DNA of 41,823 nt from Elusimicrobiota bacterium (GCA_016934855.1 JAFGSA010000066.1:1-41823), one strand, 5' to 3'; counted from the first letter of the stretch, positions 1-24,262 are shown. Notes: generated by a model from the letters alone, not told the origin. A program made the numbers and translations.

Positions 1-70
1 CCGGAGGCCGCAAGCGAGAAACCCCGTCCGAAATCGTCTGGGAAAAAAGGGGAGACGATGAGGAAGAATC
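1..70 (+). repeat. Copy A of a conserved ~70-nt block (U element), truncated by the window edge. It is homologous to the blocks at 13829-13898, 14031-14078 and 24184-24248
   Basis: By-eye alignment. The block starts ccggaggccg, like copy B (ggccggaggccgg). Later, aaaaggggagacgatgaggaagaatcc matches aaaggggagcgaacgaggagtatcc of copy B and ggaagtgaatgagaagaaatcc of copy D. Confidence 0.45.
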
Positions 71-85
71 CTGCCGGGCGTACCA
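66..85 (+). repeat. tRNA 3'-end-like fragment fused to copy A. It has the layout T-loop end, T-stem, acceptor 3' strand, discriminator, CCA, and resembles a tRNA-Arg 3' end
   Basis: The sequence gaatcc-tgc-cgggcgt-a-cca fits T-loop/T-stem(5)/acceptor(7)/discriminator/CCA exactly. No tRNA body lies upstream within the window. Confidence 0.4.
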
Positions 86-170
86 GAGTTAGTGAAAGGT
101 TGAAGGTTGAAGGTGGGAAGTGAATGACGCGGTGAATTTCACATTAAACATTACACTTTCCACATTACAC
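86..170 (+). repeat. E2 repeat copy 1 (~85 bp). It is homologous to 14127-14212, which lies immediately upstream of tRNA-Pro(GGG)
   Basis: Shared blocks: gttgaaggttgaa, gtgg.aagtg, gaatttca, and attacactttcca.att. Confidence 0.5.
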
Positions 171-196
171 AGGGTGTGTTTTCGGGGCAAGCATAA

Positions 197-245
197 GCCG
201 GGCGTACCAGAGTTAGTGGAAGTTTGAAGGTGAGAATAAGTCGCT
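197..245 (+). repeat. Second copy of the tRNA-3'-end-like 13-mer (gccgggcgtacca), followed by a truncated E2-like sequence
   Basis: gccgggcgtaccagagttagtggaagtttgaaggt at 197-231 versus gccgggcgtaccagagttagtgaaaggttgaaggt at 73-107. Confidence 0.45.
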
Positions 246-273
246 AGATGCTGGTTTCTAGTTGCTTGTGCAA

Positions 274-470
274 GTAAGTTATAAGTTTTAAGCTATAAGA
301 GAAGATACCGGATGCCAGATGTGAGATGCTAGATGAAATCACAAATGACAAATATCAAATAAGCTATAAGTTGTAAGCTGTAAGCGATAAGACTATGAAT
401 AGAATTAATTCGTATTATAAAAAGGGATTGGGATGGGAATCTTAAAACTTATAACTTACAGCTTACAGCT
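274..470. repeat. Inverted-repeat-bounded element of about 200 bp, with a perfect 19-bp IR and a nested imperfect IR. Possibly MITE-like or a structured RNA
   Basis: gtaagttataagttttaag (274-292) is the exact reverse complement of cttaaaacttataacttac (441-459). Inner arms gtaagctgtaag (~373-384) and cttacagcttac (~455-466) also pair. The interior is AT-rich with short direct repeats (agatgc.agatg). Confidence 0.4.
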
Positions 471-513
471 GAAGATGTTTGTTTTTTGGAGCTTGTTATT
501 TGATTATTATTAC

Positions 514-544
514 ACGAGATGCGTTTCACAAGATACGAGATGCG
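514..544 (+). promoter_or_regulatory. 10-bp direct repeat (acgagatgcg) at 514-523 and 535-544, spaced 21 bp apart, just upstream of the LOG-family gene. Candidate operator or regulator-binding site
   Basis: An exact 10-mer occurs twice, two helical turns apart, 33 bp before the ATG at 577. Confidence 0.25.
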
Positions 545-576
545 AATCATGATATCGTAATCTAGAAAGAATTATT

Positions 577-13691: not shown

Positions 13692-13766
<75 letters not shown>

Positions 13767-13828
13767 GAAATCACCAGGTGAGGTATAAAGGGGATCGAAG
13801 GGAAATAGCCGCTCCCTGAGGGAGAAGA

Positions 13829-13943
13829 GGCCGGAGGCCGGAAGGTTATTTCCCCGGCTCCGAGAGAGCAGGAGAAAGGGGAGCGAACGAGGAGTATCCC
13901 CGTCTCCCCTGCACCGCGAGGGGCGCAGGGCGCGGCCGCTCCA
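13829..13943 (+). repeat. Repeat unit B: U block (~13829-13898) fused to a tRNA-Gly 3'-end copy (atccccgtctccc...gctccagaaatc). A 28-nt hairpin-forming insert interrupts the acceptor-strand copy
   Basis: atccccgtctccc and gctccagaaatc match the last nucleotides of tRNA-Gly, including 7 nt of its 3' flank. The insert cctgcaccgcgaggggcgcagg can form a CCTGC/GCAGG stem. Confidence 0.55.
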
Positions 13944-14030
13944 GAAATCTCAGAGTGAGAGATATATTAGGGGATAGAAGCCTTACGCGCGCATGCTGAG
14001 CATAAAAAGCACGGAGTGCGAAGGCAGATA

Positions 14031-14120
14031 AGGCCGGCTCCGAGAGAGCAGGAGAAAAGGGGCGAGCGAGGAGTATCCCCGTTTCCCCTGCACCACACGG
14101 GATGCAGGACACGGCCGCTA
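14031..14120 (+). repeat. Repeat unit C: a second U block plus a diverged tRNA-Gly 3'-end copy. It is about 85% identical to unit B over ~65 nt
   Basis: ggccggctccgagagagcaggagaaaaggggcgagcgaggagtatccccgtttcccctgcacc. The CCTGC/GCAGG stem is conserved with a different loop (accacacgggat). Confidence 0.55.
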
Positions 14121-14126
14121 CATGAA

Positions 14127-14212
14127 TTTAGTTGAAGGTTGAATGTGGAAAGTGGAAAGTTGCTTGGTAAGGAAGAATTTCATTTAACATTACACTTTCC
14201 ATATTAAACTGT
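14127..14212 (+). repeat. E2 repeat copy 2, immediately upstream of tRNA-Pro(GGG). It probably contains the tRNA promoter
   Basis: Homologous to 86-170. It includes the TTACAC-like block attacactttccatatt. Confidence 0.5.
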
Positions 14213-14219
14213 ATGGGGT

Positions 14220-14296
14220 CGGGATGTGGCGCAGTCTGGAAGCGCACTCGTCTGGGGGGCGAGGGGTCGCCAGTTCAAATCTGGCCATCCCGACCA
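14220..14296 (+). tRNA. tRNA-Pro (anticodon GGG), with encoded CCA
   Basis: Acceptor CGGGATG/CATCCCG, D arm GCGC-AGTCTGGAA-GCGC, anticodon stem CTCGT/GCGAG with loop CTGGGGG, T arm GGGTC/GCCAG? It folds as GGGTC-GCCAG with T-loop TTCAAAT and 3' strand CTGGC. Confidence 0.8.
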
Positions 14297-14488
14297 TTCT
14301 TTGTACCGCTGGCAGCGGAAACATGCCCGGCAGAGGACCATCCATCACGGTCATCAGAGAAAAACCCGCAAAAAAGGCCGGAAACCCGGAGAAAACACCT
14401 TCCGAAGGCCGGATATACCGGGATTTGACAGGCACATATTAAAATGCTAGAATAAAAAAGGATTATTGGGAATATTCTGTATAACAAG

Positions 14489-16078
14489 ATGCAGAAATTA
14501 CTTAACCAGAACATCAAAAAGATACTTGTCGTTGAAGACGATGAGCTCATCAATAACACCATCGTGGACTGCCTTAAGGTTGAAGGATTCAACACCGATT
14601 ATACCGATGACGCCGAGAAGGCTCTTTGGCTGATAAATTATAACGCGTACGATCTGGTCATAACTGACTTGAAACTGCCGGGATTGAGCGGTATGGACAT
14701 CGTAAAAGCTGTGAAAAAGAAGGATCCTTCATGCAGGACAATAATAATCACTGCGTACGGCACGATTGATTCCCAGGTCGAAGCCATTAAGGCGGGTGCG
14801 GAAGATTTTATAATAAAACCCTTCAATATAGAGGAGTTCACCGCGAAGATCGCGGGGTGCATGAAAAAACCCGCTAAAACCGTTCCCGGAGACGAAAACC
14901 GCAAAAAGAACATACTTAAAAAGACGAAAGAAAAAACCGGTGAGCTGGTGTTATACACGAATCTTAATATCCTCATGGAATATGCATGCGATCTGCTCGA
15001 GGCGCAGGGGGGATCTCTTTTGCTGAACAAGGAAGGGTTCCTTGAAGTCAAGGCTGTTTCGGACGCTTTCCGCGACGATCTGTTGGGAAAAAAGGTGTCT
15101 CCGGAAGGCGGTATCTTCTGTGAAGTAATAAAGGCCGGGAAACCACTTCTTATCACAGAAGATATTAATAATGTTTTCTTTAACGGTTTCAGGGAATCTG
15201 CCAAAGTCAACAGCTGCATCTGTATCCCGATCTCAGACAAAGACAGGTGTTTCGGGCTTCTCAACCTCTGCAGGACAGGAGAGAACTATTTCAACAGCGA
15301 AGACCTGGAAGTTGCCGGATATTTTTCGGACAACATACTTACTGCCATAAGAGCCAGCGAAGCCGAAGCCGAGCTGGAGAAAGCAAAGAACAGCCTGGAG
15401 ATATCAAGCAGGCAGCTGGAGGCTTTTACCAAGGCGGCTGCTAACGACCTCCAGGAACCTTTGCGCCGGGTGGTCAGCTTCCTTCAGCTTATCGAAACAA
15501 GATACAAGGACAAACTCGATGCAAGCGGAAGCGAATTCATCGAGTATGCCGTGAGCGGCGCAAAGCTGATGAAGACCATGGTGGAGAGGCTCCTGGAATA
15601 TTCCAAGCTGGGGAGAAAGGATTCACCGACGGAAGAAGTTGATTTTAACGCGGTACTGGACCAGGTAAAGAGCATGTTCGGGCCGGAAATAAAGGCTGCC
15701 GAGGCGGAAGTAGTCGCGGATGTCCTGCCCGTAATGGAGCTTAACAGGGCGGATATCCATCATCTTTTCAAGCACCTGTTATCGAATTCCATAAATTTCA
15801 GGGGAGACGAAAAACTGGAGATCACCGTATCTGCTATGGATAACGGGAAAGAATGGTATTTCTGCGTCAAAGATAACGGGATGGGATTCAATATGAAGGA
15901 TAAGGAAAAGATATTCGGGATGTTCAACCGCCTGTATGAGCAGAAAATACTCAGCCAGACCGGGATGGGGCTTGCCATATGCAAAAAGATAATAGAGAAC
16001 GCGGGAGGAAAGATATGGGCCGAATCCGTAATCGGGGAGGGGACTTCCATATATTTTACTATACCTCACAAAAAGTAA
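14489..16078 (+). CDS. Hybrid signalling protein REC-GAF-HisKA-HATPase. The H-box histidine is replaced by asparagine
   Basis: REC domain (ILVVEDDE...DLVITDLKLPG...IKPF); GAF domain; DHp domain FTKAAANDLQEPLRRV versus the consensus sHELRTPL; catalytic N box (HHLFKHLLSNSINF), G1 (DNGMGF) and G2 (GMGLA). Confidence 0.8.
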   Translation: MQKLLNQNIKKILVVEDDELINNTIVDCLKVEGFNTDYTDDAEKALWLINYNAYDLVITDLKLPGLSGMDIVKAVKKKDPSCRTIIITAYGTIDSQVEAIKAGAEDFIIKPFNIEEFTAKIAGCMKKPAKTVPGDENRKKNILKKTKEKTGELVLYTNLNILMEYACDLLEAQGGSLLLNKEGFLEVKAVSDAFRDDLLGKKVSPEGGIFCEVIKAGKPLLITEDINNVFFNGFRESAKVNSCICIPISDKDRCFGLLNLCRTGENYFNSEDLEVAGYFSDNILTAIRASEAEAELEKAKNSLEISSRQLEAFTKAAANDLQEPLRRVVSFLQLIETRYKDKLDASGSEFIEYAVSGAKLMKTMVERLLEYSKLGRKDSPTEEVDFNAVLDQVKSMFGPEIKAAEAEVVADVLPVMELNRADIHHLFKHLLSNSINFRGDEKLEITVSAMDNGKEWYFCVKDNGMGFNMKDKEKIFGMFNRLYEQKILSQTGMGLAICKKIIENAGGKIWAESVIGEGTSIYFTIPHKK

Positions 16079-16330
16079 GGTTTCTTCAAGGCCAAGCTTT
16101 TCGTTAATTTCTTATATTCGTAAAAACCGCATGCGAAGACTTTCCCTGCAGAAATTCCTGTTTTGCTTTCAGATTATATATCTGTATTTTCCTTTTTCCT
16201 TCCGGAAAACCAAATAAAAATACAGCAGCTGTTATTAATAATCCGCTGTCATGCAATGATTTGCAATTTTTCCAGTAATTTATATAATATCAGTTGCTTT
16301 TAAGACTAATCCAAAAATACAGGAGGAAAT

Positions 16331-17827
16331 ATGAAAACAAGGTTACTTCTGGCAGGGGCAATATGTTCTTTTCTGATCTTGCTCTCCGGCACAACGGCAA
16401 ATGCGGCAACCTGGTACCCGCTAACGACAAACGGTTTCGGTGATGAATACAATGAGACTGTGTACCCGGGCGGGGTATTCAACGATATGATATTCATAGG
16501 GACAAACCATCCGTACGGAGGCGAAATCTGGTATTCCTCGGAAGGTTCCAGTTTCAGCCTTTCTACGGAAGGCGGTATGGGAGATTCGGCCAACATGACA
16601 GTGCAGGTGATGCCGGAAGCCCCCTGGGGGGATCTGTTCGCCCACACCTATAACAACAACGGCGCGGAGATATGGAAGAGTGAAACGGGCCTGCCGGGCT
16701 CGTGGACCCAGGTGCAGGTGAACGGGAGCAGCTACAACGGTCTCGACGGAGGCACTGACAATGTCGCGCTGTGGGGATGGTCTAACGATGACGGCACCGT
16801 ATTCATGGGCACCGAGAACAACGGTACGAACGGATGCGAAGTGTGGTATACTCCGGACGGCATAAACTGGACGAGGAATGCCACTGGCAGCGTTGATTTC
16901 GGATGCAATTCTCACACTATCGCAATACCCGGCCCCGTATTCGGCACCCGTATTTTCTGCGGTACTTTCAGATCATATAACTACGGTTCCAGTCTTTTCT
17001 GCAGGGACGAACTTGTCGGCGCTACTGTTTATTCAAGCGACTGGACCACCAAGGATACCGGCGGTTTCGGGGATACCAATAACGACCAGGTCATCCTGTC
17101 CCCTCAGAGTTTCGGCGATCAGCTTTACGCGGGAACCATGAACGATGATACGGGCTGCGAAATATGGCGGACTGAGGACGGGGAAACATGGGAACAGGTA
17201 AACGAGGACGGATTCGGAGACCCCAATAACTGGGAGATAACATCGTTCTGCATACCCGGTGACGGATACATATATGCCGCGACGAGCAACAGCAGCACCG
17301 GCGGCGAGATATGGCGTTCTGAGGACGGGGAGACCTGGGAAAAAGTGGAAGGTACTGAAGGCGGTTTCGGAGACGCGCATAACACGTCCGTATATCTTTC
17401 CATGGGGACATATAACGATCATATGTACGCCGGCACCCATAACTATAACGGCGGGGGGCATCTATATATGATGTCCATTGAGGGAGAACCCCCGGTAGAT
17501 CCGAATACAAAGGCCGAGGGTCAGGATGAAGAAATACAGGCGACAAAAGCCGGCGAAATAGTCGTCGTAGGGTCGACAGAGCGCGAAGGCGTTATTAATC
17601 CTGACAAGGGTGATCCTATAGTAGTTGATTTCAGGGGCAAGAAACCCGGTAAATATACCCTGAGAATATTCACGATGCTCGGCGAACTCGTATATGACGA
17701 GACAAAGAGCTCGATAAGCGGCGGAAGATTTTCCTGGATACCCAAGAACCTGGCTTCAGGTATATACATAGCGCACGTAGAGGGTCCCGGATTAAACATC
17801 CAGAAGAAAATAGCGATAATTAGATAA
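16331..17827 (+). CDS. Secreted beta-propeller-repeat protein (BNR / ELWxxDGT-like repeats G.EIW.S.DGETW) with a C-terminal T9SS-type or FlgD-Ig-like sorting domain
   Basis: Signal peptide ending ANA-AT. At least 6 repeats (GGEIWYSSEG, GAEIWKSETG, GCEVWYTPDG, GCEIWRTEDGETW, GGEIWRSEDGETW). C-terminal ~80 aa reads GKYTLRIF...SGIYIAHVEG...KKIAIIR. Confidence 0.65.
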   Translation: MKTRLLLAGAICSFLILLSGTTANAATWYPLTTNGFGDEYNETVYPGGVFNDMIFIGTNHPYGGEIWYSSEGSSFSLSTEGGMGDSANMTVQVMPEAPWGDLFAHTYNNNGAEIWKSETGLPGSWTQVQVNGSSYNGLDGGTDNVALWGWSNDDGTVFMGTENNGTNGCEVWYTPDGINWTRNATGSVDFGCNSHTIAIPGPVFGTRIFCGTFRSYNYGSSLFCRDELVGATVYSSDWTTKDTGGFGDTNNDQVILSPQSFGDQLYAGTMNDDTGCEIWRTEDGETWEQVNEDGFGDPNNWEITSFCIPGDGYIYAATSNSSTGGEIWRSEDGETWEKVEGTEGGFGDAHNTSVYLSMGTYNDHMYAGTHNYNGGGHLYMMSIEGEPPVDPNTKAEGQDEEIQATKAGEIVVVGSTEREGVINPDKGDPIVVDFRGKKPGKYTLRIFTMLGELVYDETKSSISGGRFSWIPKNLASGIYIAHVEGPGLNIQKKIAIIR

Positions 17828-17855
17828 AAGCAGCAAACAATACAGGAGGATGTGA

Positions 17856-18779
17856 ATGCTTAAAAAATATTTGTTAACTTTGGTTGTCCTGATTACTTCG
17901 ACTGGGGTGTGTTTTTCCGGCAAGGTTGGAAAGACAGGCTGGTCCGTATTCAGGAAGGCGCGGTCAGCGAAATTCAAGCCGATAACGGTAACGCCCGTAA
18001 TGGCGGTCCGAGGAGACCTCTCCGGGGCTTTCTATAATCCCGCGGTGCTCGCGATGAATATACGCAAGGAGATATTCTTCCTTTCCGAGCTCGGGATTAC
18101 CGATGATATGTTCGGAGGAGTAGTCTACGGACACCCGCTTAAGGATTCTGCCATAGCCGGCGGAATAATATATTACGATGCGGGAGAAATAGAGCTCAAC
18201 TGGCTTGATAGAGACGGGGATCTGCAGTCAGAGGAGGTCTCTGCCCAGAAGGACGTGCTCGGGCTTGTGTCCTACGGGCGCAAAGTAAGAGATAACATAT
18301 GTCTCGGCGGTACCGTAAAATTCGCGACCAGTAAACTCGTCGAAAGAGAATCGGCGAATGCCTATGCCTTCGACGTGGGCGCGCTGTACCTCCCGAAAAA
18401 ATACGAGAATTTGAGCCTTACCGGTTCACTCCAGAACCTGGGTATGTCTACAAAGTTCGTCGATAAAGCCAACCCGCTGCCCGTATCGGCATTTGTCGGG
18501 GCGGGGTACTGGTATGACCTGAGCAACGACTATTACCTGACGCCGGGATTCGATTTTACTTATCTCGTCGCTGAAGAGAGGGTCGTTCCCGAACTGGGTT
18601 TTGAGCTGGGCAGAGACCCGATGTCTATAAATTTCGGGTACCAGTTCACGTCTGAAGGAGCCTGGCATCTGGGCTTTACGCTCCTTAAGAACGATTACGA
18701 TATAGCGTATGCTTATCTGCCCGGTCTGAGACTGGAATCTACCCACAGGATAAGCGTAGGAGTAAGGTTCGGCAAGTAA
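17856..18779 (+). CDS. Outer-membrane beta-barrel protein, FadL/PorV-like, containing an NPA motif
   Basis: Signal peptide (MLKKYLLTLVVLITSTGVCFS), an N-terminal FYNPAVLA motif (FadL hatch NPA-like), alternating amphipathic strands, and an aromatic-rich C-terminus. Sits next to the CTD cargo gene. Confidence 0.5.
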   Translation: MLKKYLLTLVVLITSTGVCFSGKVGKTGWSVFRKARSAKFKPITVTPVMAVRGDLSGAFYNPAVLAMNIRKEIFFLSELGITDDMFGGVVYGHPLKDSAIAGGIIYYDAGEIELNWLDRDGDLQSEEVSAQKDVLGLVSYGRKVRDNICLGGTVKFATSKLVERESANAYAFDVGALYLPKKYENLSLTGSLQNLGMSTKFVDKANPLPVSAFVGAGYWYDLSNDYYLTPGFDFTYLVAEERVVPELGFELGRDPMSINFGYQFTSEGAWHLGFTLLKNDYDIAYAYLPGLRLESTHRISVGVRFGK

Positions 18780-18809
18780 TACTGACTGAAGACATATAAG
18801 AAAATAACC

Positions 18810-18859
18810 GGCGGTTAGTATCCGGACAAACCGGATGCTAACCGCCTTTCCTTTTAAAA
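18810..18859 (+). terminator. Rho-independent terminator after the outer-membrane protein gene
   Basis: A 16-bp stem (ggcggttagtatccgg / ccggatgctaaccgcc, one mismatch) with loop acaaa, followed by tttccttttaaaa. Confidence 0.7.
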
Positions 18860-18913
18860 CAGCCTTAAAATAATGCCGAGAGCATCCCGGGGTATTCCGG
18901 CGCGAGAGATGTT

Positions 18914-21073
18914 CTACTTTGTTTTCAGTTCCCAGACCCCGTTCCAGTCGTCGGCAGGCGGTTCGGATTTATACTTTTTGCATCTTGAGAGATAGGTGAC
19001 GGAAGGCCCGTCTTCTGGCAGGATTTTTAACGCTTCTTCGAAAAGCCTTATGCCTTCGTCCCATTTGCGGGTCTTGTAGCATTTCAATCCTTCACTGTAA
19101 AGGGCAAGGACTTTTTCCTTGTCGGGAGAAAGGCTGCCTTTTACGGCCATAACTTCATATACGTGAACGGGTTTCTTCTTGCCTTTCACCCGCAGAGCGT
19201 CAAGCTCCCGGAATTCGATATCGTTTTCCACCTGGGCCTTAGTGAACTCGCTCATCATTATACAGGTGCCGTATTCCTTGTTGGCAGATTCCAGCCGGGC
19301 GCCCAGGTTTACCGAATCTCCCATGACAGTGTAGTCCATCCTCGTCTTCGATCCCATGTTCCCGACTATCATCGGCCCGGTGTTTATCCCGATGCGCATG
19401 CTCAGCGGGGGACGGCCTTCTTCTTTCCATTTTACCTGCAACTGCCCGAGCTTTTTCTGGCAGTCCAGGGAAGCTTTGCAGCATCTCAGCGCGTGGTCAT
19501 GCTGGTCCACCGGAGCGTTCCAGAACGCCATTATGGCGTCGCCCTCATACTTGTCCAGCGTACCTTCGTAATCGAATATTATATGCGTCATGGCTTCCAG
19601 GTATTCGTTTATGAGATGGACAAGGTCTTCCGGCTCGAGCGATTCGGATATAGTAGTGAAGCCCGAAAGGTCAGAGAAATACACGGTCATCTCCCTGCGT
19701 TCGCCGCCGAGAGTCAGGGAAGAAGGGTCTTTCAGTATCTTGGTGACTACCGACGGCGTTATATACGTGGAGAACACGTTCTTTATCCATTTTTTCTCCT
19801 TCTCTTCGGTGGCGTACTTATAGAAGACCAGGAACAGGTCTGTGAGGAATATGACCATGAGGGGGTAGACTATTATGATGCTCAGGCCGTGCTTAATAAA
19901 CAGATAATAATTGACGACAAGGTATAGTATGAAGATCATGAATGTATAGATTATGCTCCTGACGGGAGTGAGCCTCGGCAGAAGAAAACCCATGAAGATC
20001 CCCAGGAATATCAATAAAAGGATATTCTGGGACCTTGTAGTGTGGCTGATGAAGCTGCCTGTCAGGATGTTGTCGAATACTGTGGCGTGAACTCCCACGA
20101 TGGGATCCACGTTTGAGAAAGGAGTGGGCCCGACATCAAAAGACCCTGTGGCTGCCATGCCTATAAAGACGACCTTATCCTTGAAATCCACAAGGTCTAT
20201 GACGGGTTTATCCCCTCTTTTTAACTGCTCGTATGCCTGTATAATATCGGAGTATGAATGACTCCTGAAGGACTGTATGGAGCCGCTGTAATTAGCGGTG
20301 ATCTGTATATAATCGTTGACCGGTATCTTTATCGGTTTCCTGGTCTGCCCGGGGAAATTGATTATTACATATTTTTCCGGGATCACTTCTATGTCTTCAA
20401 GCCGCGCGCCCAGGTAATCGCAGGCCATTTTGAACGAGATAAGCGGGTATATCCTGTGCATGTACCATATGAACAGTAGAGCTCTCCTGTAAACACCGTC
20501 TTCGTCGGGGGCGCCGTTCACAAAACCGGATCCTTTTACCACGCCGAGTATGCCTCCGAACGGCAGGGTGACATCGTAACATTCGAAATAGGTATCCGGG
20601 TCTTCGTTGGGAATACCGAAGCTGTGAAAGAGCGGATTGAGCGACTGCGGTTTTTCCGTCGCCATGGGGAAGTAAAAGGGGAAATATACGTTCCCGGCTC
20701 TCCGGGCGGAATCTATGAGTTTCTTGTCGTCCTGGGGGAACAGGTTATCGGGTTCGGGAAAAAGGACATCGAAAAATACCGCGTATGCGCCGTATTCGGA
20801 AAGTATGTCTATCAGCTTTGCATGTATATTCCTTCTCCAGGGCCATTTCCCGAATGCGCCGAGGCTCGCGTCGTCTATAGCGACGATCCTGATAGGTGAC
20901 TCCGCTTCCTTCTGCCCCCTGAACTTGAACCTGAGGTCATACAGGTTGAGTTCGACTCTTTCCAGTATATTATACTGGTAGAATATTATCAGCAAAACGG
21001 TTACAAGAAGGCTGATTATCACGCCGGGCAGAAACCTGCGGAGCGTATCGTGAGTCTTTTTCATGATTTGCAA
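18914..21073 (-). CDS. CHASE2-domain membrane adenylate/guanylate cyclase with a C-terminal TPR-like tail
   Basis: N-terminal CHASE2 (IVAIDDASLG..WPWRR), transmembrane helices, a class III cyclase domain (FSDLSGFT...GDAIMAFW...GINTGPMIVGNMGS), and a TPR-like C-terminus. Confidence 0.85.
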   Translation of the reverse strand: MQIMKKTHDTLRRFLPGVIISLLVTVLLIIFYQYNILERVELNLYDLRFKFRGQKEAESPIRIVAIDDASLGAFGKWPWRRNIHAKLIDILSEYGAYAVFFDVLFPEPDNLFPQDDKKLIDSARRAGNVYFPFYFPMATEKPQSLNPLFHSFGIPNEDPDTYFECYDVTLPFGGILGVVKGSGFVNGAPDEDGVYRRALLFIWYMHRIYPLISFKMACDYLGARLEDIEVIPEKYVIINFPGQTRKPIKIPVNDYIQITANYSGSIQSFRSHSYSDIIQAYEQLKRGDKPVIDLVDFKDKVVFIGMAATGSFDVGPTPFSNVDPIVGVHATVFDNILTGSFISHTTRSQNILLLIFLGIFMGFLLPRLTPVRSIIYTFMIFILYLVVNYYLFIKHGLSIIIVYPLMVIFLTDLFLVFYKYATEEKEKKWIKNVFSTYITPSVVTKILKDPSSLTLGGERREMTVYFSDLSGFTTISESLEPEDLVHLINEYLEAMTHIIFDYEGTLDKYEGDAIMAFWNAPVDQHDHALRCCKASLDCQKKLGQLQVKWKEEGRPPLSMRIGINTGPMIVGNMGSKTRMDYTVMGDSVNLGARLESANKEYGTCIMMSEFTKAQVENDIEFRELDALRVKGKKKPVHVYEVMAVKGSLSPDKEKVLALYSEGLKCYKTRKWDEGIRLFEEALKILPEDGPSVTYLSRCKKYKSEPPADDWNGVWELKTK

Positions 21074-21174
21074 TTATACATTACGCGTGTCTAAAAGGCA
21101 ATTTCGGGCAGCCTTTGCCAGGTTGATTTTGAAGAATTAAACTTATAGAATAAAAGCAAAATTATCTGCGTAAT

Positions 21175-22185
21175 ATGGAACATAAAAAAATAATTGTTAC
21201 GGGGGGATGCGGGTTTCTCGGCCAGCACCTGGTCAGGTGTATTGCGGAATTGTCCGGGGACATCGCCGTAGAAGTGCTCGACCTGAAGAGCGACCAAGGC
21301 GGGCCTGCCGATTGCGGCGGGTTTGCTAATATAACCGTATCGGTCGGAACGGATATCTGTGATTATGAATCCGTCAAGAGAAGATTCGCGGGTGCCGATA
21401 CCGTAATACATCTGGCAGGTCTCGTATCCTTTTCACTCAGAGCGAGAGAGGATCTTGAAAGGGTAAACGTGGCCGGAACAAGGAATGTCCTCGGGGCGGC
21501 GTATGAAAATAATGTGAAAAATTTTATCCACGTGAGTTCGGTAGCGGCGCTTGGTTATACCGATGACAGGGAACTTCCCGCAGACGAGGACTTCATCTTC
21601 GACTGGGATATAGCGCGCAGGAGAAACAAGTTTTATATGCTCACCAAGCATATGGCGGACGAAGCAGTAAAAGAATACAAGGAAAAGGGCATGAACTGCG
21701 TGATAGTCTACCCCGGACTCATGTTCGGGCCCGGGGACGTCACAAACTCGAAAAAGCTTATCTCGGCTATCAGGGCGTCCCGGATACCTTTCAATATGCC
21801 GGGGGGAACCAATATAGTGGACGTGCGGGACGTGGCGCGAGGGATAGCGGAGATATTGAAAAGAGATGTAAGAAACGGAGATTTTCTTCTGCCGGGGCAT
21901 AACCTCGAATTTGCCCGTATAAACAGTGTCATCGCCGAAGAGCTTTCGGTGAGACCTCCCGGGATCACGTTGCCGCGGGCGCTGAACGGGCTCATGTACG
22001 GACTGCTGCTTCTGGTAGAGATGATATCAGCCAAAAGTCCGGAACTCACTGCGGATAACGTCGATTCCGCATTCAAATTCAGGTATTTCAGCGGTGAAAA
22101 AGCCGAAAGGGAACTCGGGTGGCGGCCTGAATACGGGTTCCGGCAGACAATAAATGACACAATAAGATGGATGGACGGAAAATGA
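21175..22185 (+). CDS. NAD-dependent epimerase/dehydratase (3-beta-HSD family)
   Basis: IIVTGGCGFLGQHLV Rossmann motif and a YxxxK (YMLTK) motif. Confidence 0.8.
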   Translation: MEHKKIIVTGGCGFLGQHLVRCIAELSGDIAVEVLDLKSDQGGPADCGGFANITVSVGTDICDYESVKRRFAGADTVIHLAGLVSFSLRAREDLERVNVAGTRNVLGAAYENNVKNFIHVSSVAALGYTDDRELPADEDFIFDWDIARRRNKFYMLTKHMADEAVKEYKEKGMNCVIVYPGLMFGPGDVTNSKKLISAIRASRIPFNMPGGTNIVDVRDVARGIAEILKRDVRNGDFLLPGHNLEFARINSVIAEELSVRPPGITLPRALNGLMYGLLLLVEMISAKSPELTADNVDSAFKFRYFSGEKAERELGWRPEYGFRQTINDTIRWMDGK

Positions 22186-22961
22186 GCAGTTTGGAAGGTA
22201 AGGTAGTAATAATAACCGGCGCTTCCAGCGGTATCGGCCGCTCCGCGGCTTTAAAATTCGCGGAAGAAGGCGCGAAACTGGTCCTGGCCGCGCGCAGAGC
22301 CGGGAGGCTTGAGGAAATACGACAGCAAATTGCCGCATATAACGCCGAGTGCATAGCCGTTAAAGCCGACGTGTCGCGCGAAGAAGATGTGCGCAATCTG
22401 TTTGACGAAACAGAAAAGGTATTCGGCGCGCCGGATATACTGGTTAATAATGCGGGGAGGGGACTTAAGGCGGAGATCCGGGACATAGGGCTTGATGAGT
22501 GGATGTCCGTGCTGAACACTAACCTGACAGGAGTATTTCTCTGCACAAGGGAGTTCGTGAGGAGGAAGAAAGACAGCCCGTCAATAAAACGGATAATAAC
22601 GGTATCTTCTATAGCCGGCCTTTTCGGCGCCCCGACTTACGCGGCCTACTGCGCCTCAAAACACGCCGTGACGGGTTTTAACAGGTCTGCCAGATGGGAG
22701 CTTTCCCGAAAGGGGATTAAAGTTACGGTCATACACCCGGCGAGGGTAGATACCGAGTTCTTCGACAGCTATAAAAAAAGGCCCGGCAGGGCCCAGATGC
22801 TCTCTCCGTCTGACATCGCGGAACTTATAACTGCAATAGCATCTGGTTCCGCTGCCAGAGCCGTGCTGGTAAGAGGGCTTAATTTCTTTAAAAGGGTCTA
22901 TTATTTAGCGAGATATACGGTCATACCTCAAGGAGAAAAAAATGAAAAGAACATACCTTAG
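22182..22961 (+). CDS. SDR-family oxidoreductase
   Basis: TGASSGIGRS and YCASKHAV motifs. The ATG at 22182 overlaps the epimerase stop (ATGA); an alternative start is at 22167. Confidence 0.8.
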   Translation: MSSLEGKVVIITGASSGIGRSAALKFAEEGAKLVLAARRAGRLEEIRQQIAAYNAECIAVKADVSREEDVRNLFDETEKVFGAPDILVNNAGRGLKAEIRDIGLDEWMSVLNTNLTGVFLCTREFVRRKKDSPSIKRIITVSSIAGLFGAPTYAAYCASKHAVTGFNRSARWELSRKGIKVTVIHPARVDTEFFDSYKKRPGRAQMLSPSDIAELITAIASGSAARAVLVRGLNFFKRVYYLARYTVIPQGEKNEKNIP

Positions 22962-23819: not shown

Positions 23820-23897
23820 CGGGGTGTGGCTCAGTTTGGCTAGAGCACTCGGTTCGGGACCGAGAGGCCGTCGGTTCAAATCCGACCACCCCGACCA
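23820..23897 (+). tRNA. tRNA-Pro (anticodon CGG), with encoded CCA
   Basis: Acceptor CGGGGTG/CACCCCG, D arm GCTC-AGTTTGGCTA-GAGC, anticodon stem CTCGG/CCGAG with loop TTCGGGA, T arm GTCGG-TTCAAAT-CCGAC. Confidence 0.85.
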
Positions 23898-23928
23898 TGC
23901 TGTCTGATTGAAACGACGGCCAAAAAGG

Positions 23929-23952
23929 TCCGGAAAAAGTTATTTTTCCGGA
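23929..23952 (+). terminator. Perfect 10-bp hairpin (tccggaaaaa-gtta-tttttccgga) downstream of tRNA-Pro(CGG). Probable terminator or processing signal
   Basis: An exact inverted repeat whose 3' arm supplies the U-run. Confidence 0.5.
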
Positions 23953-23958
23953 TATATG

Positions 23959-24086
23959 CGGGGTGACAGCGACCCCGATGTTTTGTTTTGCAGAGCAAGA
24001 ATATCGGGGGAAGCGCAAGAGGGGCGGTCGAGCCCCTATTGGGAGCGGGAGCGACGCCGTGGGTTCAAATCCGACCACCCCTACCA
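23959..24086 (+). repeat. A ~128-nt unit that begins with the tRNA-Pro 5' acceptor heptamer (cggggtg) and ends with a 26-nt copy of the tRNA-Pro(CGG) 3' end (gggttcaaatccgaccacccctacca, one mismatch). It is a degenerate repeat unit, not a functional tRNA
   Basis: 24061-24086 matches 23872-23897 at 25 of 26 positions. The interior has no D or anticodon arms. It contains a diverged U-like segment (gagcgggagcga). Confidence 0.55.
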
Positions 24087-24183
24087 TGAACCACGGGGGG
24101 GCATGGTATGCCAGGTTCATGAGTAAATATATAAAAGAGGATTTGAAAGGAAATCATCGCTCACAGTGTGAGATGAGGCCGTA

Positions 24184-24262
24184 GGCCGGAAGAGGATTTC
24201 CCCGACTTCGAGTGAGCGGGAGGATAGGAAGTGAATGAGAAGAAATCCGACCACCCCGACCA
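24184..24262 (+). repeat. Repeat unit D: U block (~24184-24248) fused to a 20-nt exact copy of the tRNA-Pro(CGG) 3' end (aaatccgaccaccccgacca, 24243-24262)
   Basis: ggccggaagaggatttccccgacttcgagtgagcgggagg aligns to ggccggaaggttatttccccggctccgagagagcaggag of unit B. Its 3' end merges with the T-loop/acceptor copy. Confidence 0.55.

Follow-up and report, generated by a model that had tools for sequence, protein, structure and literature searches.

Why does a contig begin with the 3' end of a tRNA that has no tRNA in front of it? The window analyzed here, the whole 41,823-nucleotide (nt) contig JAFGSA010000066.1 of an Elusimicrobiota metagenome-assembled genome (MAG; GCA_016934855.1), opens with 65 bases that run directly into a T-loop end, the 3' strands of a T stem and an acceptor stem, a discriminator and CCA (bases 66 to 85). 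An earlier note on this DNA had placed the first bases within a repeat block called U, and had described them as fused to a tRNA-Arg-like 3' end without a tRNA body; the contrary outcome that it named was a plain tRNA gene interrupted by the window edge, without similarity to U. We conclude that bases 1 to 85 are the right-hand end of one member of the U family and that U probably represents a miniature element not described before, with the T-loop of tRNA genes as its target. Since an intact tRNA stands on the left of such a unit and a direct copy of tRNA nt 57 to 76 on its right, the locus has the look of a T-loop insertion that entered between nt 56 and 57 and gave the tRNA its 3' end back. 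A five-helix core is kept by compensatory changes, and orthologous tRNA loci in relatives are without the element.

The contig begins within a U copy

Bases 1 to 65 (copy A) were compared with the three U units that lie inside the window (B, C and D; Table 1) and with a unit from a second genome (L062). When the alignment was anchored at the junction and run end to end, copy A was identical to unit B at 48 of 65 positions, to unit C at 44 and to unit D at 42, and these scores were equaled by 0, 1 and 8 dinucleotide shuffles, respectively, of 5,000 each. Against the last 65 nt of the L062 unit, 43 of 65 positions were identical, a score reached by none of 5,000 shuffles. A free local alignment of the same bases to U was much weaker (24 versus 16.8 +/- 2.7, equaled by 39 of 2,000 shuffles). 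Because the anchored scores were strong and the free local score weak, the homology of copy A to U is judged from these alignments to be real but diverged. A covariance model of the family (R1) also matched copy A with 56.9 bits over model positions 68 to 152; this score is not independent, as copy A was in the training alignment, whereas the anchored alignments and the L062 match are. The opening claim of the earlier note, that the window starts within U, was therefore borne out by the anchored alignment, and no tRNA body was present, since neither ARAGORN nor Rfam called a tRNA at bases 1 to 85, even at E <= 10 with truncation allowed. In place of the complete cloverleaf of a tRNA gene (RF00005), this stretch holds nt 57 to 76 only.

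The tRNA end could be assigned by both sequence and synteny. Bases 66 to 85, gaatcctgccgggcgtacca, matched nt 57 to 76 of the tRNA-Arg(CCG) of one relative (L031) at 19 of 20 positions and were close to the tRNA-Arg of two others (L062 and L063). The window's first gene codes for a LOG-like protein (TIGR00725; 100% identical to MBN2407886.1), and in all three of these relatives tRNA-Arg(CCG) stands directly upstream of the orthologous LOG-like gene, with a gap of 7 nt in L031 and 88 nt in L063, both without U, and of 159 nt in L062, with one U. The tRNA-Arg-like end is thus nt 57 to 76 of tRNA-Arg(CCG), and the parent gene would lie just beyond the contig edge, to the left of copy A; ARAGORN and Rfam found three tRNA genes only in the window, those for Gly-CCC, Pro-GGG and Pro-CGG. 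Because the window is the entire contig, the truncation of U at base 1 is the contig end, an assembly break, and the tRNA body is out of reach. An attempt at upstream extension with the exact 22-mer GCCGGGCGTACCAGAGTTAGTG gave no match in JGI metagenomes, and the Logan assembly of SRR13394437 breaks near window position 473, then within tRNA-Gly and again where tRNA-Pro(CGG) ends.

A complete counterpart in a second genome

L062 lies in a different Elusimicrobiota MAG (GCA_043813605.1), the LOG-like and GpsA proteins of which are 71% and 63% identical, respectively, to those of the window. The order there is alaS, tRNA-Arg(CCG), a 117-nt insert, a 20-nt copy of tRNA nt 57 to 76, 22 nt and the LOG-like gene. 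The insert is flanked by a perfect repeat (20/20; GAATCCTGCCGGGCGCGCCA, nt 57 to 76), and the sequences just outside the two repeat copies are unrelated, being GGTTC versus AGGAA on the left and AAGGATC versus TTATTTA on the right. The L062 unit was recovered over its full length (70.1 bits, E = 8e-16) by a covariance model for which the four window copies alone had been used. A U element was defined by a full-length match to R1 behind which the upstream tRNA is repeated from nt 57 or 58 onward, and the L062 unit has both features. L062 therefore displays the arrangement that, for copy A, is out of sight beyond the contig edge. Bases 1 to 65 are not like a tRNA body and align to U, and in L062 the U unit with its copy sits downstream of an intact tRNA-Arg(CCG), so that the stretch is not simply a tRNA gene cut by the window edge.

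U units follow three types of tRNA

Altogether, five U copies stand behind three tRNA types, namely Arg (copy A and L062), Gly (B and C) and Pro-CGG (D), and all are immediately downstream of tRNA genes and on the tRNA strand. A repeat finder recovered the U-block family at 13816-13881, 13996-14061 and 24164-24229, together with the tRNA 3'-end copies. The conserved core is about 115 nt long, and whole units measure 137 to 180 bp including one repeat. The junction always falls in the T-loop; A, D and L062 share nt 56/57, and B and C join one position later, at 57/58. At the other end, the tRNA repeat terminates at CCA or slightly beyond, running past CCA at the B/C and Arg loci (repeat families D10 and D13).

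The inserts are flanked by direct repeats of the 3' segment of the tRNA, with an intact tRNA at one end. The repeat is 20/20 in L062 and in D, where an exact copy of tRNA-Pro(CGG) nt 57 to 76 occupies 24243-24262; it is interrupted in B and C, and in copy A the distal repeat only is visible. In B, the copy of tRNA-Gly nt 58 to 76 (13896-13943) is split by a hairpin insert of about 27 nt. This insert, CCCTGC...GCAGGG at 13909-13935 and 14088-14114, divides the acceptor-strand part of both Gly copies and is common to B and C although the two units have diverged. When the 26 tRNAs in all sequence examined were searched for downstream copies of their own 3' ends, a test that misses the interrupted Gly copies, such copies were found for the window tRNA-Pro(CGG) and the L062 tRNA-Arg only. 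The earlier note had also described U, tRNA 3'-end copies and a second repeat, E2 (see below), as linked at independent loci. This linkage recurs at the Gly-Pro locus, and it is more specific than first noted: each U is an insertion between a tRNA and a direct repeat of nt 57 to 76.

A decayed tRNA was rejected as the origin of U, as the U cores resemble one another and not the local tRNAs, and 7- to 8-mer matches between U and tRNA bodies (such as GAGGCCGT and CCGGAGGC) were at chance level. A U-specific promoter was rejected as well, because the TATA-like box of B, C and D is absent from L062. An assembly artifact is unlikely, since units B, C and D, all of which lie inside the contig, are mutually different and L062 comes from an independent assembly.

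A five-helix core with an anti-T box

The fold of the core, on the upstream side of the junction, is P0(H1(P1,P2),P3), with a closing helix P0, a long helix H1 that bears P1 and P2, and a hairpin P3. RNAalifold recovered P1, P2, P3 and H1 without a supplied structure. Among the five sequences, 18 of 30 pairs were altered on both sides, and 89.8% of cells were paired, versus 32 to 53% with slid partners, values that none of 500 shuffles reached; these counts come from an alignment fitted to the model with its hand-drawn P0-P3 structure and lean towards that structure. The stems H1, P1 and P2 of copy C are nearly all different from those of B and yet pair (GCCTTA/TAAGGC versus GGGAAA/TTTCCC). 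G-U pairs were found in 1 of the 127 cells with letters on both sides, and folding energies on the + and - strands were about equal, at -72.0 and -74.3 kcal/mol for B, -59.6 and -57.4 for C and -47.3 and -42.4 for D. On these predictions, the scarcity of G-U pairs and the equal folding of both strands fit a structure at the DNA level. The + strand of the U core is about 70% purine; by copy (1-65, 13790-13895, 13967-14074 and 24139-24242) the cores are about 66 to 70% purine and rich in GGA/GGAG, several of these motifs lie in hairpin loops, and in four of the five copies the P2 loop reads GGA. A hammerhead or other known ribozyme was considered and rejected, as there was no Rfam match and the CUGA-like loop is not kept in D.

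Near its 5' end, each complete unit carries an anti-T box whose complement is found in the T-loop and the 3' strand of the T stem of its own tRNA. The boxes of B (GGGGATCGAA), C (GGGGATAGAA) and D (GGATTTGAA) are placed in Table 1, and that of the L062 unit, for tRNA-Arg, is CAGGAT; the complementarity varies with the tRNA (GGGGAT, GGATTT and CAGGAT). P0 is formed by the anti-T box as the 5' strand and by nt 58 to 63 of the downstream tRNA copy, and three of its six pairs are altered on both sides between tRNA types.

A fold conserved through covariation could also belong to a functional RNA, and we considered whether U might be a structured module of the tRNA operon transcript, either a spacer small RNA or a processing or stabilizing element, in which, for example, the tRNA-like tail and anti-T box pair with the T arm or 5' acceptor strand of the tRNA, and which has spread by duplication and been kept by selection rather than by transposition. 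Every copy is on the tRNA strand, and because no terminator-like site was found on the + strand between tRNA-Gly and tRNA-Pro(GGG), the units there are probably transcribed together with the tRNAs. In L062, the unit begins 11 nt past CCA, has no promoter-like box and sits within a tight alaS-tRNA-LOG gene string, and its repeat has stayed perfect while its U is about 35% diverged from copy A, which suggests selection or gene conversion. The neighboring structures E2, unit 'a' and the 240-576 region also fold better on the + strand. We nevertheless judge an RNA of this kind unlikely: a single G-U cell of 127 and equal folding on both strands are unusual for a selected RNA, no Rfam family matched, and such an RNA leaves unexplained why the same core stands behind three tRNAs, fused at 56/57 or 57/58 to the 3' end of each one's own tRNA.

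The boundaries of the duplication raise a further alternative. Its left boundary is fixed and its right boundary falls at or just past nt 76, as might be expected if a retroposon resembling a short interspersed nuclear element had its structured RNA reverse transcribed at a T-loop nick (bottom strand, 56/57), a second nick near the tRNA 3' end then giving the nt 57-76 target-site duplication, sometimes with some trailer. U is small, structured and noncoding, and the anti-T box could guide target choice in the manner of the exon-binding sites of group II introns. There was, however, no reverse transcriptase among the Pfam-scanned open reading frames (ORFs) and no A-rich or other priming tail, and the few G-U pairs argue against an RNA intermediate under structural selection. 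We know of no bacterial precedent for a retroposon of this kind and regard this origin as very improbable.

Occupied and empty tRNA loci in relatives

Comparison with relatives showed the same tRNA loci without the element. The spacer between tRNA-Gly and tRNA-Pro(GGG) is 453 nt long in the window versus 17 nt in L025 and L026, 64 nt in L023 and 62 nt in L064, and the distance from tRNA-Pro(CGG) to the next gene is 589 nt versus 94 nt in L025 and 64 nt in L064. L064 is on the same contig as L062, and there both the Gly-Pro(GGG) spacer and the stretch after tRNA-Pro(CGG) are empty. By these spacers, the units are lineage-specific insertions that are patchily distributed.

Partial tRNAs that flank or are scattered behind tRNA genes are the classic signature of integrase insertions (bioRxiv 10.1101/2020.12.28.424599), and the units could then be passive scars, either att-arm remnants of deleted integrase islands or prophages or the products of decayed tandem tRNA duplications. 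Unit 'a', the partial tRNA at 190-209 and the acceptor-stem hairpin at 23959-23977 (all described below) look like such debris, and the gene block downstream of tRNA-Pro(GGG) varies among the relatives. Three independent deletions, however, would not yield collinear remnants of equal length, and decay would keep neither five helices by compensatory change nor a 20/20 repeat. In addition, the resemblance of the U cores is to one another rather than to the local tRNAs, and no integrase fragment was detected. Scars of this kind are therefore quite improbable as the source of U.

Searches for families, further copies and an enzyme

The 30 main ORFs of the 42 kb, when searched against Pfam, comprised gpsA, HU, MerR, greA, response regulators, glycosyl hydrolases and polyamine genes, and no integrase, transposase, reverse transcriptase, Cas-like or nuclease-type family was found among them. 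There was no recombinase gene or fragment in these 30 ORFs, and none was called beside L062 or L064 (one contig per genome). The sole long ORF across U, a spurious 88-amino-acid frame that spans B and C, had no match in a protein search. Rfam cmscan at E <= 10 on all three loci gave weak, chance-level matches only, so that neither an IS200/IS605 omega-RNA, an IscB HEARO RNA nor any other Rfam family was matched.

Beyond these loci, neither the window nor the relatives L023 to L031, L063 and L064 yielded another copy to model R1, and blastn against phages and plasmids gave no U match. A degenerate U pattern gave 21 matches in GTDB genomes and 27 in JGI metagenomes, all chance-like, with no P2 hairpin and no tRNA end, and four scans of IMG/VR yielded either nothing or one match within a coding region; the patterns used for these collections were narrow, being drawn from three or four copies, so that absence elsewhere is weakly supported.

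In its geometry, U would fit a guide RNA gene of the TnpB/Cas12 omega-RNA or CRISPR RNA type: a multihairpin scaffold some 110 nt long leads into roughly 20 nt that are identical to a target and begin directly behind a conserved 4-nt motif there, with U as scaffold, nt 57 to 76 as 3' guide and the universal GTTC of the tRNA gene as adjacent motif. We find this the hardest of the alternatives to credit. No guide RNA family of Rfam matched at E <= 10, no transposase or nuclease Pfam was present in the 30 ORFs and no such gene was called beside L062. Moreover, the repeat passes CCA in B/C and at the Arg loci, IS200/IS605-type insertion makes no duplication, and the intact upstream tRNA would need a separate explanation.

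A possible mode of movement

The reading that best accounts for the findings, and on which we are evenly divided, is that U is a nonautonomous insertion element that is defined by its structure, targets tRNA T-loops, rebuilds the 3' end of the tRNA and owes its movement to factors acting in trans. The mobilizing enzyme would then be encoded elsewhere, and the most economical candidate would be a site-specific recombinase or other DNA strand-transferase that acts on a folded single-stranded or cruciform form, by analogy to the handling of folded DNA at integron attC sites and the CTX-phage attP. The nt 57-76 repeat and the anti-T box together may set the tRNA that is used by each subfamily; here we infer an enzyme, a single-strand intermediate and a role for P0. 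Possible, though rather doubtful in our estimation, is the bolder claim that U represents a new class of mobile DNA, a gene-less, self-addressing unit of about 115 nt that carries its own nt 57-76 replacement, with the anti-T box as a programmable address read by a host or unlinked enzyme on folded single-stranded DNA (ssDNA).

Several points weigh against U as a mobile insertion element. No mobilizing enzyme was identified in a search that covered one contig per genome, and the known copies number five, in two MAGs (two contigs). No polymorphism between occupied and empty sites was seen within one population, nor was any circular or excised form. P0 consists of 6 bp only, and RNAalifold favored a local alternative there. 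The lack of a terminator-like site noted above makes a role as cotranscribed RNA possible. Copies A and L062, both at an Arg locus, could have been inherited vertically as orthologs, in which case the direct evidence for movement comes down to the three types of tRNA and the patchiness of occurrence. Finally, the switch of a subfamily from one tRNA to another, in which repeat and anti-T box change together, lacks an explanation.

Relation to known systems

Williams is said to have described, in 2002, a 'T-loop sublocation' class of integration into tRNA genes. Like U, the prophages, islands and tycheposons that integrases insert at tRNAs lie 3' of an intact tRNA and have a distal repeat that runs from the T-loop to the 3' end; the tRNA stays functional, several units may stack at one tRNA, and partial tRNAs have been described both as att repeats and as remnants of older events (bioRxiv 10.1101/2020.12.28.424599). 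U differs from such insertions in its size of 137 to 180 bp, its lack of genes, the use of the same core for three tRNAs and the absence of an integrase nearby, and its core is set by secondary structure whereas integrase elements use arm-type protein-binding sites.

Known cis-mobilizable elements (CIMEs) are kilobase-scale deletion derivatives of a specific integrative and conjugative element (ICE) and are moved when the ICE lands alongside. They are elements without integration and transfer genes that have kept intact attL and attR (PMC6323972). With flanking repeats kept and genes absent, as observed here, the U units look like an extreme of the CIME state; unlike CIMEs, they have no known parent element, and their structured core is without a CIME counterpart.

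An integron attC site is a single imperfect hairpin with R''/L'' and L'/R' boxes at which recombination occurs at G|TT, and CTX-type elements target dif, the CTX-phage attP being used by the host XerCD after two inverted target-like copies pair to build the site. In attC and the CTX attP, as in U, structure is kept as sequence drifts through compensatory changes, nearly all pairs are Watson-Crick and no dedicated gene lies inside, and the pairing of the U anti-T box with nt 58 to 63 resembles the site-building of CTX phage. U differs from both in its branched five-helix fold, joined to a tRNA T-loop, and in a P0 of just 6 bp, and against an attC site stands also its junction at 56/57 rather than 53/54.

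MITEs (miniature inverted-repeat transposable elements), repetitive extragenic palindromes and bacterial interspersed mosaic elements, Correia elements and Rickettsia palindromic elements are, like U, small, noncoding, nonautonomous, intergenic and hairpin forming. MITEs, however, have element-intrinsic terminal inverted repeats and short fixed duplications, whereas U has a tRNA-derived inverted repeat of 6 to 10 nt, its terminal complementarity being that of the anti-T box to nt 58 to 63 only, and a duplication of at least 20 nt. A casposon or CRISPR Cas1 origin, which would call for a duplication of 14 to 15 bp or of repeat length as well as terminal inverted repeats and cas1, is likewise at odds with what was found, namely, no Cas1-type Pfam, no intrinsic terminal inverted repeats and a 20-nt duplication set by tRNA landmarks.

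Miniature forms of the insertion sequence family IS200/IS605, the TnpB omega-RNAs and the IS91 family share with U the character of ssDNA elements with subterminal hairpins and insertion beside a 4- to 5-nt motif; the U junction comes right after the T-loop GTTC, and in an omega-RNA the scaffold is followed by a flank-derived guide. The IS91 family targets GTTC or CTTG beside oriIS and makes no duplication (bioRxiv 10.1101/2025.01.24.634351), and IS91-type insertion at GTTC was rejected for U on both of these grounds, the absence of a duplication and the position of the target. In general, the IS200/IS605 and IS91 families differ from U in making no target duplication and in using any GTTC or target-adjacent motif rather than tRNAs alone.

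tRNA genes are classic landing sites of large integrating elements, and the known elements there carry an integrase or are kilobase-scale derivatives of carriers. U differs in that a unit of about 140 bp with a conserved branched fold changes its repeat and anti-T box together with the tRNA. Were it mobile, no smaller tRNA-targeting element would be known; it would also be a compact model of target choice encoded in nucleic acid structure, and it might lead to an unrecognized recombinase or nuclease that reads tRNA-shaped DNA. As an RNA device, U would instead be a new noncoding RNA linked to tRNAs and bearing a mimic of the tRNA 3' end. On the practical side, repeats of this kind cause assembly breaks at tRNA loci, and base 1 of this contig is one of them.

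Neighboring structures

Table 1. Positions of the U units, tRNA genes and associated structures in the window
Feature	Position	Strand	Description	Basis
U copy A	1-65	+	5' end cut by contig edge; 3' part of P2 hairpin, 3' strand of helix H1, hairpin P3, linker	Anchored alignment to B, C, D and L062; aligned rows
Displaced direct copy of tRNA-Arg(CCG) nt 57-76	66-85	+	L062-like junction	19/20 to L031 tRNA-Arg
E2a	86-170	+	Imperfect hairpin, G/T-rich then A/C-rich	Homologous to 14127-14212
Second partial tRNA-Arg remnant	190-231	+		k-mer matches; 35-nt repeat D10
AT-rich long-hairpin region	240-576	+	TAAG-type short motifs; upstream of LOG-like gene	Inverted repeats I6, I8
tRNA-Gly(CCC)	13692-13766	+	Intact; left of units B and C	ARAGORN, Rfam
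U unit B	13767-13943	+	Trailer hairpin, anti-T box, H1/P1/P2/P3, then tRNA-Gly nt 58-76 copy	
Anti-T box, unit B	13790-13799	+		Complementary to tRNA-Gly, 10/10
U unit C	13944-14122	+	Architecture as B; ends with interrupted tRNA-Gly nt 58-76 copy (14075-14122)	
Anti-T box, unit C	13970-13979	+		
E2b	14127-14212	+	Hairpin directly upstream of tRNA-Pro(GGG)	Homologous to E2a
tRNA-Pro(GGG)	14220-14296	+		ARAGORN, Rfam
tRNA-Pro(CGG)	23820-23897	+	Intact; left of units 'a' and D	ARAGORN, Rfam
Unit 'a'	23898-24088	+	Structured insert unrelated to U	Repeat family D2; k-mer matches
U unit D	24089-24262	+	Trailer hairpin, anti-T box, H1/P1/P2/P3, then tRNA-Pro(CGG) copy	
Anti-T box, unit D	24139-24147	+		Complementary to tRNA-Pro(CGG), 9/9

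The earlier note had E2 directly following the tRNA end and recurring upstream of tRNA-Pro(GGG), and both statements held: the local score of E2a against E2b was 66, compared to 15.1 +/- 2.4 and a maximum of 30 for 2,000 shuffles. E2 was seen in this contig only and is absent from the L062 unit. Its folding energies on the + and - strands were -20.2 and -15.8 kcal/mol for E2a and -22.8 and -13.6 for E2b, and it is regarded as different in kind from U, a separate spacer hairpin that comes after the last tRNA copy at two loci.

Farther into the same spacer, the second tRNA-Arg remnant consists of AGCATAAG, which equals tRNA nt 39 to 46, joined to CCGGGCGTACCA, 11 bases of which, CGGGCGTACCA, match nt 66 to 76, and it ends in a repeat of the first 22 nt or so of E2. 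The 13-mer that the earlier note saw recurring at 197-209 is part of a 35-nt repeat (D10), in which 73-107 corresponds to 197-231 with 94% identity. In the relatives inspected, nothing like the 240-576 region was seen ahead of the LOG-like gene (the L031 gap being 7 nt), and the region folded at -85.9 kcal/mol on the + strand versus -62.4 on the - strand.

Unit 'a' is a second kind of insert assembled from tRNA pieces. It opens with an inverted copy of the tRNA-Pro T arm (23902-23921; 18/21, a score reached by 1 of 1,000 shuffles), no such inverted copy being present at the empty tRNA sites of relatives. Its terminator-like hairpin at 23959-23977 contains both acceptor-stem strands (CGGGGTG...ACCCCG) and then a T-rich tail, and the unit ends with a direct copy of tRNA-Pro nt 44 (approximately) to 76 plus TG (24053-24088). 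It folded at -80.3 kcal/mol on the + strand versus -62.4 on the - strand. By these predicted energies, E2, the 240-576 region and unit 'a' have a clear preference for folding on the + strand, as is seen with RNA structures that contain G-U pairs, and E2 and the other hairpins may be separate spacer structures, probably at the RNA level, that have accumulated at the same loci.

Long hairpins with the TAAG motif (AGCTGTAAGCTGTAAG...) occupy 360-475 of the window, and an identical 17-nt stretch occurs at 11790-11806 of L064, in the Gly-Pro(GGG) spacer; the TAAG-type hairpins have the look of one more family of repeats associated with this clade's tRNA spacers. Between MerR and tRNA-Gly in L023 (7750-7915), a long inverted repeat, cccatttgttgcaatagg ... 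ctattgcaataaatggg, surrounds about 130 nt, and hairpin-type inserts near tRNAs may be common in the clade.

The segment from tRNA-Pro(GGG) to greA varies among the relatives. In the window (14297-22941) it holds 8.6 kb of signaling and sugar-nucleotide genes, in L064 (11925-14526) four unrelated genes and in L025 (7831-7839) none; in L023 (8134-10500) an IS21 element follows tRNA-Pro(GGG), and greA was not seen in the part of the contig examined. A tRNA-Pro(GGG) tail that would bound the variable block as a direct repeat was sought in the window and in L064, and none was found. Within this segment of the window, a 498-amino-acid ORF (16331-17827) with an internal DNA repeat of about 147 nt (D6, D9) and a weak Por_Secre_tail match probably encodes a repeat-containing secreted protein.

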